The notes below the pieces were generated by a model. That model was not told the DNA's origin. It saw only the letters and a list, made by a program, of their open reading frames with translations, and did no database searches. Made by a program: the position numbers and the translations under genes. Shown here in pieces: positions 5,588 to 39,053 of a DNA stretch of 44,872 bases. The DNA comes from Armatimonadota bacterium. GTDB lineage: Bacteria; Armatimonadota; UBA5829; JAUSEB01. The stretch lies in assembly GCA_030650495.1 (NCBI GenBank), contig JAUSEB010000004.1:1-44872 (forward strand). Reading direction: 5' to 3'. The number at the start of each line of letters is the position of its first letter. The stretch's first letter is position 1.

Positions 5588-5643
5588 TACGGTATTCTCC
5601 TCACTATCAAATGAATACTTCGATATACCCCGATAATACCCTT

Positions 5644-5790
5644 CGTCGTGCGTTGAGCGTCGTGCGTCGTTCGTAGTGCGTCGACCGTCGTGCGTGGCGC
5701 GTGGCGCGTAGTTCGTCGCGCGTGGTCCGTCGTGCGTGGTCCGTCGAGCGTCGACCGTCGTCCGTCGTTCGTGGTTCGTGGTTCGTTGCT
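5644..5790. repeat. Degenerate heptamer tandem array (CGTNGNN)x21
   Basis: 21 consecutive 7-mers with invariant CGT-N-G and variable positions 4, 6 and 7; no indels. Confidence 0.95.
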
Positions 5791-13341: not shown

Positions 13342-13400
13342 GGTTGTCGGTTGAGGGTTGAGGGAAAGCTGTCAGCTGTCAGCTGACAGCTGACAGCTTT
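13342..13400. repeat. (GGTTGNN)x3 followed by the perfect heptamer-built palindrome AGCTGTCAGCTGTCAGCTGACAGCTGACAGCT
   Basis: Palindrome at 13367-13398, extending to 13365-13400. Confidence 0.9.
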
Positions 13401-23955: not shown

Positions 23956-23977
23956 TACGGGGAGGGAGTTGGGTTTA

Positions 23978-24008
23978 AGCTGTCAGCTGTCAGCTGACAG
24001 CTGACAGC
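23978..24008. repeat. AGCTGTC/AGCTGAC heptamer palindrome
   Basis: 31 of the 32 bp of the palindrome at 13367-13398. Confidence 0.9.
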
Positions 24009-24014
24009 ATAAAA

Positions 24015-24626
24015 CTAATCTCCGCGCTTATCTGTGGTTATCCGCAGTTGGCTCTCAACACCAGCGTCCGCCATCTCCTGCACAGAGCGTATGAACCTGC
24101 GCATGCGTTTGCGGTCCCAGTCATCGGCTGAAAGCTGGTAAGCCCTTCTGAGATAGGGCAGCGCCTTTCCCGGCTGATTGAGCTTTCTTGCGTAAATTGT
24201 GCCCATTATCTCATGAACGGCCATATTGTCGGGGTTATTATGAACGCCTTCTTTCAGATATTCGATTCCCTCGTTGGTGCGGTCCATCCCCATGCACAGC
24301 ATCCACGATCCGAGTAAATAGGCATCCACGAAATGCGGGTCCAAATCCGTGATGACTTTGACCAGAGGGAGTATCTCTTTGTTAGCGCGCCAATTGGTGT
24401 TCGTGCGGATGAATTCATGATGGTACTTTTCCACTTTAATCCACAACACATTTGCTATCACCGATCGGAATTCACCGGCTAAGGCGTACATAGCCGATTC
24501 ACTCTTACCGGCGCGTCCAAGGCTGGTCTTCTCATAATTGGCGTCAACAACGGGTTCGAGGATGCATAATGCAGCGAATATGGCTATGAATGGCAAAAAT
24601 TTCCGAATGGCTGCCGTTTTTCTCAT
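24015..24626 (-). CDS. Membrane-anchored TPR-like protein (PilG-like partner of the ABC system)
   Basis: ATG at 24626 with GGAGG; N-terminal TM; FRSVIANVLWI; ITDLDPHFVDAY; TPR-like helices. Confidence 0.7.
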   Translation of the reverse strand: MRKTAAIRKFLPFIAIFAALCILEPVVDANYEKTSLGRAGKSESAMYALAGEFRSVIANVLWIKVEKYHHEFIRTNTNWRANKEILPLVKVITDLDPHFVDAYLLGSWMLCMGMDRTNEGIEYLKEGVHNNPDNMAVHEIMGTIYARKLNQPGKALPYLRRAYQLSADDWDRKRMRRFIRSVQEMADAGVESQLRITTDKRGD

Positions 24627-27179: not shown

Positions 27180-29933
27180 CTATCGACTATCGACTGAACT
27201 CAGCGCCGCCAATCGCTCCTCCAGCTTCGCCTTCTTCTCCTGAAGCTCCTGCTGGATGCGGCGCTCTTTTTCCACAACCTCAGCAGGCGCCCTTGCAATG
27301 AACTGCTCGTTCGACAGCTTGCCCTCGGTCCTCGAAAGCTCTTTCCCAAGCGCCTCAAGCTCCTGCTCGATCTTCGACAGTTCCTTCTCTACATCGATCA
27401 GACCGGCCACGGGAACGTGCAAATCGAAGTCCATAAAATGCGAGCTGACATAATTCCTCTTCTCGCTGTCGGGCAGAGACTCCGCGAATGTAATCTCCCC
27501 AACCCTTGCCAGCGACTTCACGCCTTCTGAGATAGCCTGAATTCGTTCTCGCACGGCATCAGATGGCGAAGTGACGAGCACGTTGACCGGGCGGCCCGGC
27601 TGCGCGCCCAGTTCAGTCCGCAGATTGCGAATAGCGCGGGTAATCTCCATCATCTCATCCATCTGCTTCTCGGCTGTTTCATTCACCCAAACCGAGTCAG
27701 CCACCGGGAACGGGCGGATCATCAAGCTGTCTCCGCTGTGCGGGATTGCCTGCCAAATCTCTTCGGTGATAAACGGCATAACGGGATGCAGCAGCCGCAT
27801 CGTCGTCTCCAGCACGTGCCAGAGAAGATATTGGACCTGCTTGCGCTCATCGGAAGTATCTCGCAGACGCGGCTTTGCAAGCTCCAAATACCAGTCGCAG
27901 TACTCGCTCCAGATGAACTCATACAGCGCGCGGCAGGCGTCGTCCATATCGTATGCGGCAAACCCCTTGTTGACCGTAGTGACAAGCCTGTTCAAACGGC
28001 TGAGTATCCAGCGGTCTTCCAACCGCAGCTCGAAGGTGGAAAGGCGTATATCCGGGTCTTCGCCCAGATACCAATTCTCGACCCATTTGTGCTCGTTCCG
28101 AACTACCGGAACACCAGGCGGCAGGTGTTCTTCTTCGTGATCCAGGTTCATCAGGACGAAGCGGGAAGCGTTCCAAATCTTATTGCAGAAGTTCCGTATG
28201 ACTTCCACGCGCCCGCCGGAGAATCGCATGTCCTGCCCCTCACCGGCCTGCTGGAGAAGGGCAAATCGAAGCGCGTCCGCGCCGTATTGGTCGATAAGAT
28301 CGAGCGGATCGACCCCCGTGCCCAGCGACTTGCTCATCCTGCGGCCTTCTTCGTTCTGGACCGTCGCGTAGATATAAACGTCGTGGAATGGAATCTCTTT
28401 CAAGAACTCCAGGCTCGTGAAGATCATCCGTGCGACCCACAAATAGATAATATCTCGCGCCGTGACCAACACATTCGTGGGGTAGAAATAGTCGAGATCA
28501 GGCGTCTTCTTAGGCCAGCCGAGAGTTGCGAAAGGCCAAAGAGCTGATGAGAACCACGTATCCAGCACGTCCGGGTCTTGTGTCAGATTCTTGCTACCGC
28601 ATTTAGAACAAACCTCCGGCGCGCTCTTTGCCGCGATATACTCGCCGCAGTCGTCGCACCGCCAGACTGGTATGCGATGCCCCCACCAAAGCTGCCTCGA
28701 TATGCACCAATCCCGGACGTTTTCCATCCAATCCAAGTATAATTTTGTATATCTTTCCGGGATAAACTTGATCTTTCCGCTCTTCACGACATCGATGGCG
28801 GGCTGCGCCAATTCCTTCATCCGGCAGAACCACTGCTCCGAAAGAAGCGGCTCTATTACGGTTTCACAGCGCCTGCAGGTCGCCACCGAAAGCGCATAGT
28901 CGTCAACTCTTGTAAGATAACCCTTGTCGCGCAATTCCTCAACCAGCTTCGCGCGAGCTTCGTAGCGGTCCATACCGGCGTATTTGCCTGCTTCTTCGGT
29001 CATCTTGCCGTCGGGACCAATCACAATCACGCTGTCGAGATTGTGCCGCAGGCCCATCTCGAAGTCGTTGGGGTCATGCGCGGGAGTCGTCTTGACCGCC
29101 CCAGTTCCGAATTCGGGATCGACATAACTGTCATCGAAAATGGGTAGCTTGCGACCGACAATCGGCAGAATTGCATTCTTGCCGACCAGACCCAGATATC
29201 TATCATCTTCAGGGTTCACGGCCACGCCCGTATCGCCGAGCATCGTTTCCGGCCTTGTCGTCGCCACACGGATATTCCCCGTGCCGTCCTCCAGCGGATA
29301 GTCTATATAGTAGAGCTTGCCGTCAATGGCCTCGTATTCGACCTCAATATCGGAAATCGCCGTATGGCAGCGCGGGCACCAGTTGATGACTCGCGCGCCG
29401 CGATAGATATAACCCTTATTGAACAGGCGCACAAACGACTCGATCACCGCGTCGGAATACTGCTCGTCCATCGTGAACCGCTCGCGCTCCCAATCGAACG
29501 AATACCCCATCCGCTTGAATTGATTGAGAATCGTCCCGCCGTAGTGCTCCTTCCACGCCCAAACGCGCTTCAGGAACTCCTCGCGCCCAATATCGTGCCT
29601 GGTCAAGCCCACTTCGGCAAGCTGCTGCTCGACTTTATTCTGAGTAGCAATCCCGGCATGGTCCGTCCCTGGAAGGCACAGAGTCTCATACCCCTGCATC
29701 CGCTTCCAGCGAGTCAGGACATCCTGGATGCTGTAACAAAGCGCATGGCCGATATGCAGCGAGCCTGTCACATTTGGAGGGGGAATAGTTATACAATACT
29801 GCTTCTTCCCCGGCTCAATCTGCGCGGCAAAGTATAACTTTTCCAGCCAAAACTTATACCATTTGTCCTCTACGGTCTTGGGATCATATACCTTCGGAAG
29901 CTGCAACTCATCTCTCTCATTCTCTGTCGCCAA
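27180..29933 (-). CDS. valS: Valine--tRNA ligase
   Basis: PPPNVTGSLHIGHA (HIGH); DHAGIATQ; DWCISRQLWWGHRIP; RMSKSLG (KMSKS); C-terminal coiled coil; TTG start at 29933 after GAGGAG. Confidence 0.97.
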   Translation of the reverse strand: MATENERDELQLPKVYDPKTVEDKWYKFWLEKLYFAAQIEPGKKQYCITIPPPNVTGSLHIGHALCYSIQDVLTRWKRMQGYETLCLPGTDHAGIATQNKVEQQLAEVGLTRHDIGREEFLKRVWAWKEHYGGTILNQFKRMGYSFDWERERFTMDEQYSDAVIESFVRLFNKGYIYRGARVINWCPRCHTAISDIEVEYEAIDGKLYYIDYPLEDGTGNIRVATTRPETMLGDTGVAVNPEDDRYLGLVGKNAILPIVGRKLPIFDDSYVDPEFGTGAVKTTPAHDPNDFEMGLRHNLDSVIVIGPDGKMTEEAGKYAGMDRYEARAKLVEELRDKGYLTRVDDYALSVATCRRCETVIEPLLSEQWFCRMKELAQPAIDVVKSGKIKFIPERYTKLYLDWMENVRDWCISRQLWWGHRIPVWRCDDCGEYIAAKSAPEVCSKCGSKNLTQDPDVLDTWFSSALWPFATLGWPKKTPDLDYFYPTNVLVTARDIIYLWVARMIFTSLEFLKEIPFHDVYIYATVQNEEGRRMSKSLGTGVDPLDLIDQYGADALRFALLQQAGEGQDMRFSGGRVEVIRNFCNKIWNASRFVLMNLDHEEEHLPPGVPVVRNEHKWVENWYLGEDPDIRLSTFELRLEDRWILSRLNRLVTTVNKGFAAYDMDDACRALYEFIWSEYCDWYLELAKPRLRDTSDERKQVQYLLWHVLETTMRLLHPVMPFITEEIWQAIPHSGDSLMIRPFPVADSVWVNETAEKQMDEMMEITRAIRNLRTELGAQPGRPVNVLVTSPSDAVRERIQAISEGVKSLARVGEITFAESLPDSEKRNYVSSHFMDFDLHVPVAGLIDVEKELSKIEQELEALGKELSRTEGKLSNEQFIARAPAEVVEKERRIQQELQEKKAKLEERLAALSSVDSR

Positions 29934-29961
29934 TTCGCTCCTCCTCATATACGCTTTTGAA

Positions 29962-30046
29962 TGTAGCCTAGCCCCCTTGTGGGCGTAAATGAAACTGTAG
30001 CCTAGCCCCTTGTGGGCGTTATAACGGGGACAAGCCCCTAGGCTAC
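29962..30046. repeat. GTAG-type REP cluster in the valS 5' UTR
   Basis: TGTAGCCTAGCCCC(C)TTGTGGGCGT twice (29962-29986, 29996-30019) and inverted arm GGGGACAAGCCCCTAGGCTAC (30026-30046). Confidence 0.75.
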
Positions 30047-30055
30047 GGCAAATAC

Positions 30056-30378
30056 AAAAAGCCCCACTCGACCCGCACAAGGACGAGAGGGGCGCAAATG
30101 CTCCTTCGTGGTACCACCTTGATTCTCCCGACAAATCGGGACTCGTTTTCGCTATAACGGGCTTACCCGGCGAAGGTTACATGGAAGAGTGTAGTTAGTT
30201 GTTAGTTGTTAGTGGCTAGTAAATACTAGCAACTAACTACTAGCTACTAACAACTTATCTTTCACCTTCGCGGCTCCGGGGCGACCTTCGGTCGGGGCTT
30301 CACAGCCGGGAGACTCACACCAAACGCTCCCTCTCTGAGGCCGGCTTGCCGCCTACTCCTCCCCATCACTGCCTTTGC
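30056..30378 (-). ncRNA. T-box riboswitch leader (Val-specific) with intrinsic terminator
   Basis: T-box AAGGTGGTACCACG (30107-30120); stem I motifs GAGTA, AGAGA, GGTGTGA; specifier GAAG-GTC-G (GTC at 30283-30285 = Val); CCGTTA of stem IIA/B; terminator GCCCC..GGGGC-TTTTT (30056-30093). Confidence 0.92.
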
Positions 30379-30419
30379 TTATATTATCAAGTCATTTTAC
30401 CGGATATAGCGGCTAAAGG

Positions 30420-32237
30420 TCAACCGGCAGCTGACAGTTGACAGCTTTTCCCATCTGATACTTCACCAACCGAGATAGCGCCTCGCACCGAGTTGCCTAT
30501 GATTATTTCATCAGCGGCGCTCAACTCTTCAACAGAAATCGACCTCTCTACCCCGCCCGTTTCTCGCAGATAGTCCGCGCGCCAGACACCGGGCAGAAGA
30601 CCGTCTCCTATCGGAGGAGTGATCCATTCATCGCCTATCCGCACGAAGATGTTCGTAATAGACCCCTCAGTCAAATTCCCCTTTTCGTTCTGGAAAATAA
30701 CTTCATAAAACCCCTGCTCGACCGCCTGCTCCCGCGCCTCGTTGTATAGCTTTCGCTCAGTCGTTTTGTGGAAAAGAAGCCGGTCTCGCGAGTCCGTGCG
30801 CCGCGATGATAGCAGTATACGGACCGGCTCCGCCGGAGCCGCCGCTATGGGACGCGAATTCAAGCGCAGTTTACCCTTCTCGTCCAATTCCATCCGAACA
30901 ACCAAGGGAAGGACGCCGCACGATCGGACGAATTTCCGCGGCGCAACTCTGGCGCAGGCCTTTTCGAATGGGAAATCCCAATACTCCGCCGACTTCGCCA
31001 GCCGTTCAATATGCTCGTTTTCGTATAAATATACTCCTGATTCCGTGAGCAGCATAGTCTCAAACAGCCTAAGATCGGGAATCAAAGAAAAAGCAAAGCT
31101 GGATTTGAGTAACGTCTCCTCATACTCGCTCTGGGGGTCAGAGTCCCATACTATTCCTGAACCTATACCGAGGTCGAATTCGCCGCCCTTATGAACCAGC
31201 GTGCGAATAGCTATATTGCAAGTGAAGTCACCTCCGGGGGCAAAAATGCCGATTGTCCCCGTGTAAACGCCCCTCGGTTCGCGCTCCAAATCACGGATTA
31301 TCTCCATAGTCCTTCGCTTTGGCGCGCCGGTGATAGATGACCCCGGAAAAGTAGCCGCCATTATTTCCCTGAAAGAAACTCCCTCCCTGAGAACCCCGGT
31401 CGCGGCGCTGGTCATCTGCCACACGCTGCGATACTTCTCCGTCGCGAACATCTCAGGAACGTGAACAGTCCCGTAACGGCAGATACGTCCGAGGTCGCTG
31501 CGCATCATATCGAGAATCATCACGTTCTCGGCGCGGTCCTTTTGGCTCTCCACAAGCTCGCGAGCCAAATCTACATCTTCCTCCAATGTGCGGCCGCGGC
31601 GGCGGGTTCCCTTCATCGGGCGAGTATCCAGAATGTCCCCGCGCTTTTGCAGAAACATCTCCGGTGATAAGCTGAGAATTTGCGCCTCCCCTAAATTCAG
31701 ATAGGCCGCGTAAGGAACCGGATGAGAACGCGCAAGAGCCAAAAAGTAGCCAAGCGGATCGACTTCCGCCGAGAACCGGGCGTGGCAAGTGTAGTTGACT
31801 TGATAGGTGTCTCCCGATGCGATAAGCTCTTTGATTCGGGCAATAGCAGCGTTAAAGTCATCAACTGTGACATTCAGGCTCACATCGGAATTGCCGATAC
31901 TCACGGCGTCATCAATCAGACGCAGTTTGTCTTGACGAACCGCCAGCACATTGGACGCTGGATAGCAGCCCAACCAGACAAGAGGCGTCTGACCATTTGG
32001 CTGATGCGTCGAGAGGTCGAAAGCCCGTCCCGCTTCATAAGATAAATATCCGGCGACGTAATGGCCACGGCGGATTTCCGCTTCCGCCTCATCAAGCAGT
32101 CCGGACACAAGTTCGGGATCATCAGTCGAGAGTACGCGCGCGGGATCGTGGAGAAGCAGGGCTTCGCAGCCCGGAAGCCACGTATCCTCTCCCCATAACA
32201 AAACACCGCCCGGATTTTGGAGCAAATTAGAAATCAT
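30420..32237 (-). CDS. pabB: Aminodeoxychorismate synthase component I fused to an ADC lyase (aminotransferase class IV) domain
   Basis: GYLSYEAG; GDTYQVNYT; SPEMFL; RPMKGT; KDRAENVMILD; FPGSSITGAPK; GIGSGIVWDS; C-terminal HKTTER, TEGSITNIF, GLLPGVWR, NSVRG. Confidence 0.92.
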   Translation of the reverse strand: MISNLLQNPGGVLLWGEDTWLPGCEALLLHDPARVLSTDDPELVSGLLDEAEAEIRRGHYVAGYLSYEAGRAFDLSTHQPNGQTPLVWLGCYPASNVLAVRQDKLRLIDDAVSIGNSDVSLNVTVDDFNAAIARIKELIASGDTYQVNYTCHARFSAEVDPLGYFLALARSHPVPYAAYLNLGEAQILSLSPEMFLQKRGDILDTRPMKGTRRRGRTLEEDVDLARELVESQKDRAENVMILDMMRSDLGRICRYGTVHVPEMFATEKYRSVWQMTSAATGVLREGVSFREIMAATFPGSSITGAPKRRTMEIIRDLEREPRGVYTGTIGIFAPGGDFTCNIAIRTLVHKGGEFDLGIGSGIVWDSDPQSEYEETLLKSSFAFSLIPDLRLFETMLLTESGVYLYENEHIERLAKSAEYWDFPFEKACARVAPRKFVRSCGVLPLVVRMELDEKGKLRLNSRPIAAAPAEPVRILLSSRRTDSRDRLLFHKTTERKLYNEAREQAVEQGFYEVIFQNEKGNLTEGSITNIFVRIGDEWITPPIGDGLLPGVWRADYLRETGGVERSISVEELSAADEIIIGNSVRGAISVGEVSDGKSCQLSAAG

Positions 32238-32320: not shown

Positions 32321-32390
32321 AGCTGTCAGCTGACAGGTGACAGCTTTTCCATCTGCGTTTATCTGCGCTTATCTGCGTTAATCTGCGTTC
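32321..32390. repeat. Partial AGCTGTC palindrome followed by a decamer array (ATCTGCGYTN)x4
   Basis: agctgtcagctgacaggtgacagct (32321-32345); atctgcgttt atctgcgctt atctgcgtta atctgcgttc (32351-32390). Confidence 0.8.
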
Positions 32391-38261: not shown

Positions 38262-38336
38262 TGGAGCGGGAGACGGGATTCGAACCCGCGACATCCACCT
38301 TGGCAAGGTGGCGTTCTACCACTGAACCACTCCCGC
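38262..38336 (-). tRNA. tRNA-Gly(GCC)
   Basis: GCGGGAG...CCACC-TT-GCC-AA-GGTGG...GGTTCGAATC...CTCCCGC-TCCA; CCA encoded. Confidence 0.97.
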
Positions 38337-38338
38337 GT

Positions 38339-38482
38339 TTAGATGTTAGAGGTTAGAAGATAGAAGATATCTTTCCCTAACCTCTTACCTCTAATTCCTA
38401 ACCCCTAGACTTTCAAAGTTAGATGTTAGAAATCAGAAACAGTTCGTTCTAACCTCTAACCTCTAACTTCTAGCCTCTAGAC
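38339..38482. repeat. Two heptamer-built hairpins, (TTAGANN)n...(CTAACNN)n, in the Leu-Gly tRNA spacer
   Basis: ttagatg ttagagg ttagaag atagaag / ctaacct cttacct ctaattc ctaaccc, then ttagatg ttagaaa tcagaaa / ctaacct ctaacct ctaactt ctagcct. Confidence 0.85.
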
Positions 38483-38566
38483 TGGTGGGCGAGAGGAGAG
38501 TCGAACTCCTACGCCTCGCGGCACTAGGTCCTAAGCCTAGCGTGTCTGCCATTCCACCACTCGCCC
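38483..38566 (-). tRNA. tRNA-Leu(TAG)
   Basis: GGGCGAG...CTAGG-CT-TAG-GA-CCTAG; long variable arm; GTTCGAC; CCA end. Confidence 0.97.
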
Positions 38567-38568
38567 GG

Positions 38569-38655
38569 TTTAGATGTTAGATGTTAGAATAGACCGTCAT
38601 TCCGAGCGAAGCGAGGAATCTGCTTTTCTAACTCCTAACTTCTAACTTCTGGACT
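38569..38655. repeat. Heptamer hairpin with a CGTC-type REP half in its loop (Lys-Leu tRNA spacer)
   Basis: ttagatg ttagatg ttagaat - CGTCATTCCGAGCGAAGCGAGGAATCT - ctaactc ctaactt ctaactt. Confidence 0.8.
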
Positions 38656-38658
38656 GAC

Positions 38659-38734
<76 letters not shown>

Positions 38735-39021: not shown

Positions 39022-39053
39022 AGCTGTCAGCTGTCAGCTGACAGCTGACAGCT
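39022..39053. repeat. Perfect 32-bp AGCTGTC/AGCTGAC palindrome
   Basis: Identical to 13367-13398. Confidence 0.9.

Follow-up and report, generated by a model that had tools for sequence, protein, structure and literature searches.

The leader of valS, the gene for valyl-tRNA synthetase (ValRS), in an Armatimonadota bacterium (GTDB lineage Bacteria; Armatimonadota; UBA5829; JAUSEB01) is a T-box riboswitch whose stem II ends in a long hairpin built of heptamer repeats. It lies on the minus strand of contig JAUSEB010000004.1 of GenBank assembly GCA_030650495.1, of which positions 1 to 44,872 of the forward strand were analysed and are referred to as the window. Here, we show that the heptamer hairpin sits in the apical loop of stem II, that it belongs to a family of hairpins dispersed over this genome and private to its lineage, and that the same loop is hypervariable across the order, with a short tip in a close relative. 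We consider it probable that the hairpin is a selfish repeat that has been kept at a permissive, outward-pointing loop of the riboswitch.

Results

The valS leader and its stem II

The leader matches the T-box family over the full length of the RF00230 model with 98.0 bits, against a gathering cut-off of 93, and an E value of 1.7e-20 (Table 1). The specifier GUC, the CCGTTA, the T-box and the terminator are intact, as had been stated in an earlier reading made from the letters of the window without database searches (the sequence-only reading). The T-box sequence AAGGUGGUACCACG aligns to the model, and the terminator forms a hairpin of -22.1 kcal/mol (z -4.2) whose 5' arm overlaps the region downstream of the T-box sequence. 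The downstream open reading frame (ORF) is ValRS, with matches to tRNA-synt_1, Anticodon_1 and Val_tRNA-synt_C. The genome encodes a tRNA-Val(GAC) with A73-CCA (C123:4930-5004), which fits the GUC specifier and the UGGU of the T-box bulge. Judged from the alignment and the terminator fold, membership in the T-box family is sound, the complete RF00230 score, the specifier, the T-box sequence and the terminator all being found, and the region looks like a functional transcriptional riboswitch of valS, in which tRNA-Val(GAC) would be recognised through GUC.

The extra sequence of this leader falls wholly into the apical loop of stem II of the model, where the excess amounts to about 73 nt (16 insert letters, and 65 letters against 8 model positions). 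The arms at the base of the stem, 30271-30264 and 30177-30170, are the stem II pairs of the model and enclose 86 nt (30178-30263). The sequence-only reading had placed heptamer repeats inside stem II of a valS T-box, and the alignment bears this out together with its arms, its GAA/GTA bases and all of its coordinates. In the loop, Tandem Repeats Finder reported GTTAGTT x2.9 at 30194-30213 (100%) and ACTAACA x4.4 at 30225-30255 (79%), and an inverted repeat joins 30191-30221 to 30224-30254, with 31-nt arms that are 84% complementary and stand 2 nt apart.

The repeats are also predicted to lengthen the helix, as the same reading expected. The RNA strand 30276-30165 folds into one long hairpin of -43.1 kcal/mol, while 200 shuffles of it gave a mean of -23.4 with a standard deviation of 3.2 (z -6.17) and none of them folded as well. 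In the predicted fold of the entire 331-nt leader, this hairpin remains an independent domain. It is distal to the S-turn-like bases GAA and UGUA, of which the GAA at 30263-30261 matches the consensus GAA. In the available text of a preprint on the subject, stem II is described as working via a conserved S-turn that contacts the specifier (bioRxiv 10.1101/2023.02.28.530422).

A dispersed family of heptamer hairpins

The genome is a metagenome-assembled genome (MAG) of 3.59 Mb in 464 contigs with 52.9% G+C, 95.5% complete and with 5.8% estimated contamination. Exact tandem arrays of at least three copies number 172 at period 7, against 48, 8, 3 and 3 at periods 4, 5, 6 and 8 and none at periods 9-11. 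When at least two copies are asked for, 1221 period-7 arrays are found genome-wide, led by the units ACAGCTG (282), AACTTCT (119) and AACCCTC (75); AACAACT, the arm unit of the T-box copy, has 8 such arrays. Period 7 also accounts for 22 of the 39 Tandem Repeats Finder rows of the window.

A blastn search with the 86-nt insert found similar palindromes on many contigs (e.g. C90:2047-2117, C339:1118-1183 and C309:4434-4497), and these have a common architecture of (TAGTGGY)n, an apex near GGCTAGTAWWTACTAGCC and (RCCACTA)n. A hairpin scan of the genome (stem of at least 14, loop of 3-9, few mismatches) returned 317 hairpins, 161 of them with period-7 arms; 129 of these are of the CAGCTG type, 26 of the TAGT type, to which the T-box copy belongs, and 6 are others. 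GGCTAGT-N2-7-ACTAGCC, the pattern of the apex, was found at 33 sites of this genome, where a reversed-pattern control gave 1; in the 40 relatives searched, which share its family, order or class, it was never found (controls 0-2). The T-box copy is one letter off this pattern, and its apex GGCTAGTAAATACTAGC is that of C339:1142-1159 save for the letter after it. Similarly, (AGCTGAC)x3 with at most one mismatch has 143+140 matches here and 0-1 in the 40 relatives. These counts indicate that the heptamer hairpin families are private to this lineage.

None of the 26 long TAGT-type copies falls within an ORF of 120 aa or more, and on a crude ORF map 14 of them begin no more than 12 nt beyond the 3' end of one. 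The usual home of the family is therefore directly behind genes and not at RNA stem tips, which suggests that the TAGT hairpins occupy a 3'-end hairpin niche. The length of their arms varies from 14 to 33 nt. From three units on, the TAG that every TAGT unit contains stops all three reading frames, and purine-rich GGAAG-like left flanks recur in several copies (by eye).

A short stem II tip in a close relative

The stretch 29900-30450 is held whole by one sequencing run only, X1, a groundwater metagenome that is probably the source sample. A 947-nt Logan contig of X1 covers 30017-30450 with 0 differences at an even depth of 9.09, and it is not independent if X1 is the source. X3, a freshwater sediment metagenome from another study, has one 151-nt contig at depth 3 that lacks 73 nt and carries 5 other letters instead. 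Its two sides align to 30076-30180 (9 differences) and to 30254-30279 (1 difference), and between these flanks it reads GCAGC, with no TAGT seed; a second X3 contig runs on over 30263-30376 with 4 differences and 1 gap. The same valS T-box thus occurs in a close relative, where stem II has a short tip. A contig of X2 agrees with 30261-30375 and diverges beyond it, a hint that the interior of stem II differs once more there.

Stem II tips across the order

T-box matches were found in 33 of the 41 genomes searched, the present one (G000) included, and valS in all 41. The closest valS loci in a species-level genome collection belong to Armatimonadota MAGs with 83% and 64% identity. For comparison, we used 20 T-box hits of relatives that precede valS on its contig and share its strand, leaving out the partial matches in G018 and G027, G006 as a near-duplicate of G012, and hits adjoining other genes. 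The T-box is 2.9 kb from valS in G007 and at most ~1.1 kb away in the remaining hits. The aligned specifier is GUC in every one of these 20 leaders, and hence in all 21 with G000.

Compared with the Rfam model, the stem II apical region of these 21 T-boxes is between 2 nt shorter and 88 nt longer, with a median of +17, and G000 ranks third. The departures are -2 in G037, +5 in G034, +6 in G026, +9 in G020, G016 and G012, +10 in G017 and G002, +13 in G004 and G030, +17 in G028, +21 in G003, +35 in G032, +40 in G015, +44 in G031, +53 in G007, +57 in G011, +68 in G019, +73 in G000, +77 in G021 and +88 in G005. The long versions are predicted to be extended or branched hairpins, with sequences that are unrelated between genomes, such as a GC-rich palindrome in G021 and a three-way structure in G005. 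The comparison shows that the distal end of stem II is a hypervariable loop that tolerates and repeatedly collects insertions.

One of the relatives also has heptamers at this place. G011 belongs to another family; the 5' arm of its stem II contains five GAGTTNN heptamers (G011:C69:4868-4900), and the 3' arm about three units complementary to them. Its genome holds 37+37 triple GAGTTNN arrays (control 1+3), with palindromic arrays such as G011:C55:9823-9896. G000 and G011, of different families, each have their own heptamer repeats in the same stem II loop.

Lineage-specific inserts occur in other loops of the leaders as well. The distal loop of stem I has 40, 18 and 27 letters in G017, G012 and G016 against 9, 3 and 8 model positions, and stem III of G037 has 70 letters against 2 model positions. 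The distance from the T-box end to the valS match is ~550-830 nt in many relatives (e.g. G012, G016, G017, G019, G020, G030 and G032) against ~120 nt in G000, and this gap may hold a small ORF or more leader sequence. In G001, which is of the same family and has a ValRS that is 83% identical, valS stands ~330 nt after an ATPase-like ORF (G001:C37), and the genome has many heptamer arrays of other units, e.g. GAGTTAG and GAGTTCT.

Other structured RNAs of the genome

A single T-box match was obtained genome-wide, so that G000 has no second T-box, and heptamer inserts are absent from its RNase P RNA, transfer-messenger RNA (tmRNA), large signal recognition particle (SRP) RNA, thiamine pyrophosphate (TPP) RNA and cobalamin RNA. 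The RNase P RNA (C320:136-562, 251.6 bits) has a 37-nt helix extension (model ~129-150) and a 35-nt insert (near ~245), neither of which is heptameric. The tmRNA (C331) and the large SRP RNA (C29) are ordinary; the TPP match has 107 nt against a 105-position model, and the cobalamin match, at a contig end, has 138 nt (model 21-170). 6S RNA was not found in G000, and as the genome is 95.5% complete its absence is not shown. An (AGCTGAC)x3 array is located at C320:62-82, 54 nt upstream of the RNase P RNA gene.

Neighbouring features and other repeats

Upstream of the leader on the same strand are a PabB/PabC-like fusion and Lon. The promoter-like site before the leader (Table 1) has 10 of 12 consensus matches, with 1 site against 0.3 expected, a resemblance that is in itself no sign of function. 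Between the T-box terminator and the start of valS lies a REP-like (repetitive extragenic palindromic) repeat (29962..30046), a family separate from that of the stem II hairpin. It has units of ~23-25 nt, two direct and one inverted, and occurs at ~44 places on 37 contigs of the genome. Its summed contig depth is very high (283 in X1, and 857 in X7, a run of another study), which indicates that it is widespread beyond this genome; X7 carries only this repeat of the stretch 29900-30450.

The CAGCTG-type hairpins, with AGCTGTC/GACAGCT arms, form the largest heptamer hairpin family and occur in the window at 23969-24018, 13367-13398, 32321-32345 and 39022-39053. The tRNA genes Lys(CUU)-Leu(UAG)-Gly(GCC) form an operon on the minus strand at 38262-38734 of the window, and its two spacers (~38658-38567 and ~38482-38337) are full of inverted heptamer arrays, in which AGAAGTT/AGAGGTT units are followed by TTCTAAC/ATCTAAC units. 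From their sequence, these arrays should form hairpins inside the pre-tRNA transcript. A long CGTCGTG-type heptamer array at 5642-5786 of the window has up to 18.4 copies and scores at periods 14 and 28 too. The Y1 transposase family PF01797 has two weak matches in the genome, C324:1394-1612 (26.7 bits, cut-off 23) and C114:5966-6160 (22.4 bits), which are possible relatives of REP-associated transposases.

Table 1. Positions in the window of the valS locus, its T-box leader and the stem II hairpin
Feature	Position	Strand	Basis
T-box leader (RF00230)	30076..30378	-	cmscan, model 1-219
Stem I with specifier loop	30273..30372	-	cmscan alignment, model positions 7-103
Specifier codon GUC (Val)	30283..30285	-	aligned place within specifier loop GAAGGUCG
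Stem II base helix, 5' arm GCGAAGGU, then S-turn-like GAA	30264..30271	-	cmscan alignment, folds
Palindromic heptamer-array hairpin, apex GGCTAGTAAATACTAGC at 30214-30230	30191..30254	.	Tandem Repeats Finder, inverted-repeat search, hairpin scan
73-nt block replaced by 5 nt in related population (X3)	30181..30253	-	contig joint 30180>30254
Stem II base helix, 3' arm ACCUUCGC, UGUA before it	30170..30177	-	cmscan alignment
Stem IIA/B region CGGGUAAGCCCGUUA	30155..30169	-	cmscan alignment
Stem III hairpin	30126..30141	-	cmscan alignment, fold
T-box sequence / antiterminator 5' side, GGUGGUACC at 30118-30110	30100..30123	-	cmscan alignment
Intrinsic terminator, arms 30093-30084 / 30070-30061, then UUUUU 30060-30056	30056..30093	-	fold
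Promoter-like TTGACC-18-TAAAAT upstream of leader	30394..30423	-	consensus scan
valS, valyl-tRNA synthetase, TTG start	27180..29933	-	domain matches

Discussion

A probable insertion at a permissive loop

We argue that one copy of a dispersed hairpin repeat specific to this genome would have taken the place of the apical end of stem II. In this repeat family, a conserved apex stands between two inverted arrays of TAGT-containing heptamers. Most likely, such repeats recently went through a burst in the lineage, in the course of which the copy reached the loop, or was copied into it, as a DNA element able to form a hairpin. Since the distal part of stem II points away from the tRNA-contacting S-turn, an inserted hairpin would only lengthen the helix and could be tolerated, which would explain how the copy survived and why its effect on regulation would be neutral. 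The arms of the T-box copy may later have been changed by ordinary heptamer slippage or drift.

Several observations weigh against this reading. The short allele comes from a single contig of 151 nt and depth 3, the shorter side of which, at 26 nt, is below the comfort limit of 30, and contig joints of this kind can stem from other organisms or from repeats. Moreover, the allele shows a different state in a relative and not the direction of change, which would run towards the long tip because a short tip is more frequent in the order. In G001, the nearest genome, valS is not preceded by a T-box, and there is no same-family orthologous site to compare. The 73-nt block includes 13 letters that are not heptameric (30181-30193). 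The 3' strand of the S-turn reads UGUA where the consensus is AGUA, and the relatives vary at this place too (AGUA, AUUA, AGAA). The arm units of the T-box copy, of the GTTAGTT type, are a minority in the family, in which most arms are GTGGYTA, and part of these arms may have arisen in place. Finally, the 25-nt flanks of the 26 copies, inspected by eye, show neither a target-site duplication nor a conserved target, and the family could be assigned no transposase, so that it is the dispersal alone that points to mobility.

Possible growth in place

The sequence-only reading took the repeats as a sign that heptamer arrays grow as paired arms at the tips of RNA stems. A short loop would seed slippage, and both arms would expand together as only paired additions are tolerated. 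We regard such growth in place as unlikely. The exact GTTAGTT x2.9 is typical of recent slippage, and pure direct arrays of the GTTAGTT-type unit are found elsewhere in the genome (e.g. C123:20276-20331), but the exact triple is confined to one arm. The heptamers of G011 in the same loop would fit paired growth as well, but the two arms are unequal there (5 versus ~3 units) and leave an internal loop. The apex of the T-box copy, but for the letter mentioned above, equals that of 33 dispersed copies, and independent growth would not recreate it. Most members of the family are not in known structured RNAs, and the GCAGC of the short allele holds no TAGT seed from which growth could start.

Mirrored arms were rejected as a sign of paired growth for the T-box copy by a register test. 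Mismatches between its arms number 4 of 27 in the true register, 3 of 20 and 4 of 20 when the arms are slid by 7, and 1 of 13 in both cases when they are slid by 14. Since the slid registers pair as well as the true one, the pairing of the arms comes from a common degenerate unit (GTNGYTA) and not from mirrored growth. Over the family as a whole, mismatches are fewer in the true register (41 of 531) than after sliding by 7 (156 of 698), which speaks for growth in place, although this set was chosen for pairing and the contrast is inflated. Selection for pairing at the RNA level was also rejected: the sense RNA 30271-30170 folds at -39.8 kcal/mol and the antisense strand at -47.8 kcal/mol, whereas selection on the transcript would favour the reverse. 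The sense fold has Watson-Crick pairs only, with periodic A-C mismatches and no compensatory G-U pairs. As a result, the evolutionary part of the sequence-only reading is mostly unsupported.

A possible active element

The hairpin arrays could also be an active, lineage-specific class of self-propagating element of Armatimonadota that preferentially enters, or nucleates at, hairpin loops already present in transcribed DNA and whose arms are kept alike by fold-back or arm-to-arm copying, an idea that we hold to be rather doubtful. If it were true, the stem II tip would be a repeated target, hit in G000 and independently in G011 with units of their own, and the spacer hairpins of the tRNA operon (38337-38658) would be further examples of targeting.

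A possible co-opted function

That the extension has been co-opted for regulation is, in our judgement, improbable. Its ~73 nt could add transcription time between the capture of the specifier and the antiterminator decision, clamp the S-turn by a stable distal helix, or bind a protein that recognises the heptamers. A precedent is Stem Sa of the Staphylococcus aureus glyS T-box, a species-specific added stem in the antiterminator/terminator domain whose role has been shown and whose 42-nt insertion affects tRNA discrimination, according to the available text (PMC5622331). Both are lineage-specific extra stems in a T-box leader; the insert described here differs in its location, which is stem II, and in its origin as the copy of a genomic repeat, and any role of it would be hypothetical. 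Extensions of stem II by at least 35 nt were counted in 8 of the 21 leaders, and the short allele appears, by eye, to leave little helix distal to the S-turn, both of which could be taken in favour of a function. The lengths and sequences of the extensions are, however, unrelated between genomes, which looks neutral, the missing compensatory G-U pairs of the sense strand argue in the same direction, and the same repeat family is scattered in non-regulatory places.

An assembly artefact, by which a repeat-induced chimera would have put the hairpin into the leader of a fragmented MAG, is very improbable: the number of contigs, the estimated contamination and a depth over the hairpin region that other family members raise to 19-46 against 9 in X1 would allow it, but the separately built 947-nt contig of X1 is identical and of even depth, the two flanks are the two halves of one stem II helix in one T-box, and the hairpin (64 nt) is shorter than typical reads.

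Relation to known repeats

We return to the proposed insertion of a dispersed hairpin and how it compares with what is known. Among T-boxes of the valS class in RF00230, the leader is like others in having the specifier GUC, stem II, stem IIA/B, stem III, the T-box sequence, the terminator and valS downstream, with the same valS T-box in relatives of the order, and it differs by a stem II apical region that is ~73 nt longer and built of heptamers, and by UGUA for AGUA.

In some heterocystous cyanobacteria, STRR (short tandemly repeated repetitive) heptamers lengthen helix P12 of the RNase P RNA. Vioque reportedly described such heptamers in 1997 inside the RNase P RNA gene of heterocyst-forming cyanobacteria. 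The sequence-only reading drew this comparison, and as an analogy of behaviour it is a fair one, since in both cases heptamers abundant in the genome lie within the helix of a structured RNA and lengthen it, and the present genome is rich in tandem heptamers. The likeness does not extend to the host, which is of the phylum Armatimonadota and not a heterocystous cyanobacterium, or to the RNA, which is a riboswitch leader. Here, the repeat is a palindromic two-arm hairpin with a family-wide conserved apex, and the RNase P RNA of the genome has no heptamer insert. By analogy, the stem II insert would work like STRR; by its host, it is not an STRR member.

REPINs are described in the available text of one paper as hairpin-forming, non-autonomous mobile DNA (PMC3116915). 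Our family resembles REP and REPIN sequences, and the small dispersed repeats that Elhai et al. reportedly described in cyanobacteria in 2008, in its many dispersed, intergenic hairpin copies and in its restriction to one lineage (33 apex sites against 0 in 40 relatives), and is unlike them in that its arms are heptamer arrays of variable length and not a fixed sequence; of RAYT there are only the two weak Y1_Tnp matches. It differs from miniature inverted-repeat transposable elements (MITEs) in lacking a common flank or target-site duplication by eye in the 26 copies, and in its variable arm length.

Direct repeats of the heptamer TAACTGA have been described from Beggiatoaceae, some Cyanobacteria and Bacteroidetes (MacGregor 2015, PMC4679880); the accessible part of that paper counts 169 direct sets and one indirect set just upstream of start codons. 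The two genomic patterns are alike in their many intergenic tandem heptamer sets and patchy phylogenetic spread, and differ in that half of the long hairpins of the present genome are inverted heptamer arrays, many of them just after stop codons. In the open-access literature searched, as far as its text was available, we found no report of a genomic repeat inside a T-box stem II, and in the same literature we found none linking Armatimonadota with heptamer repeats.

Significance

The long leader and the short allele are a natural filled/empty pair for a 73-nt helix extension in a T-box stem II, and they point to the distal part of this stem as a place where tags or aptamers could be engineered in freely. 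For the annotation of repeat-rich genomes, we would like to point out that inserts can pull the covariance scores of riboswitches toward the threshold (98 versus 93 here), and many of the relatives' T-box matches score under the cut-off of 93.

With this leader, genomic heptamers riding in functional RNA helices are extended from the RNase P RNA of cyanobacteria to a riboswitch and to another phylum. Some Armatimonadota genomes hold hundreds of heptamer arrays, with half of the long hairpins among them, and as the heptamer families are private to single genomes, they are likely to be recent and fast-turning-over. The biology of the palindromic heptamer arrays themselves is a more interesting question than the one copy that came to sit in the T-box.

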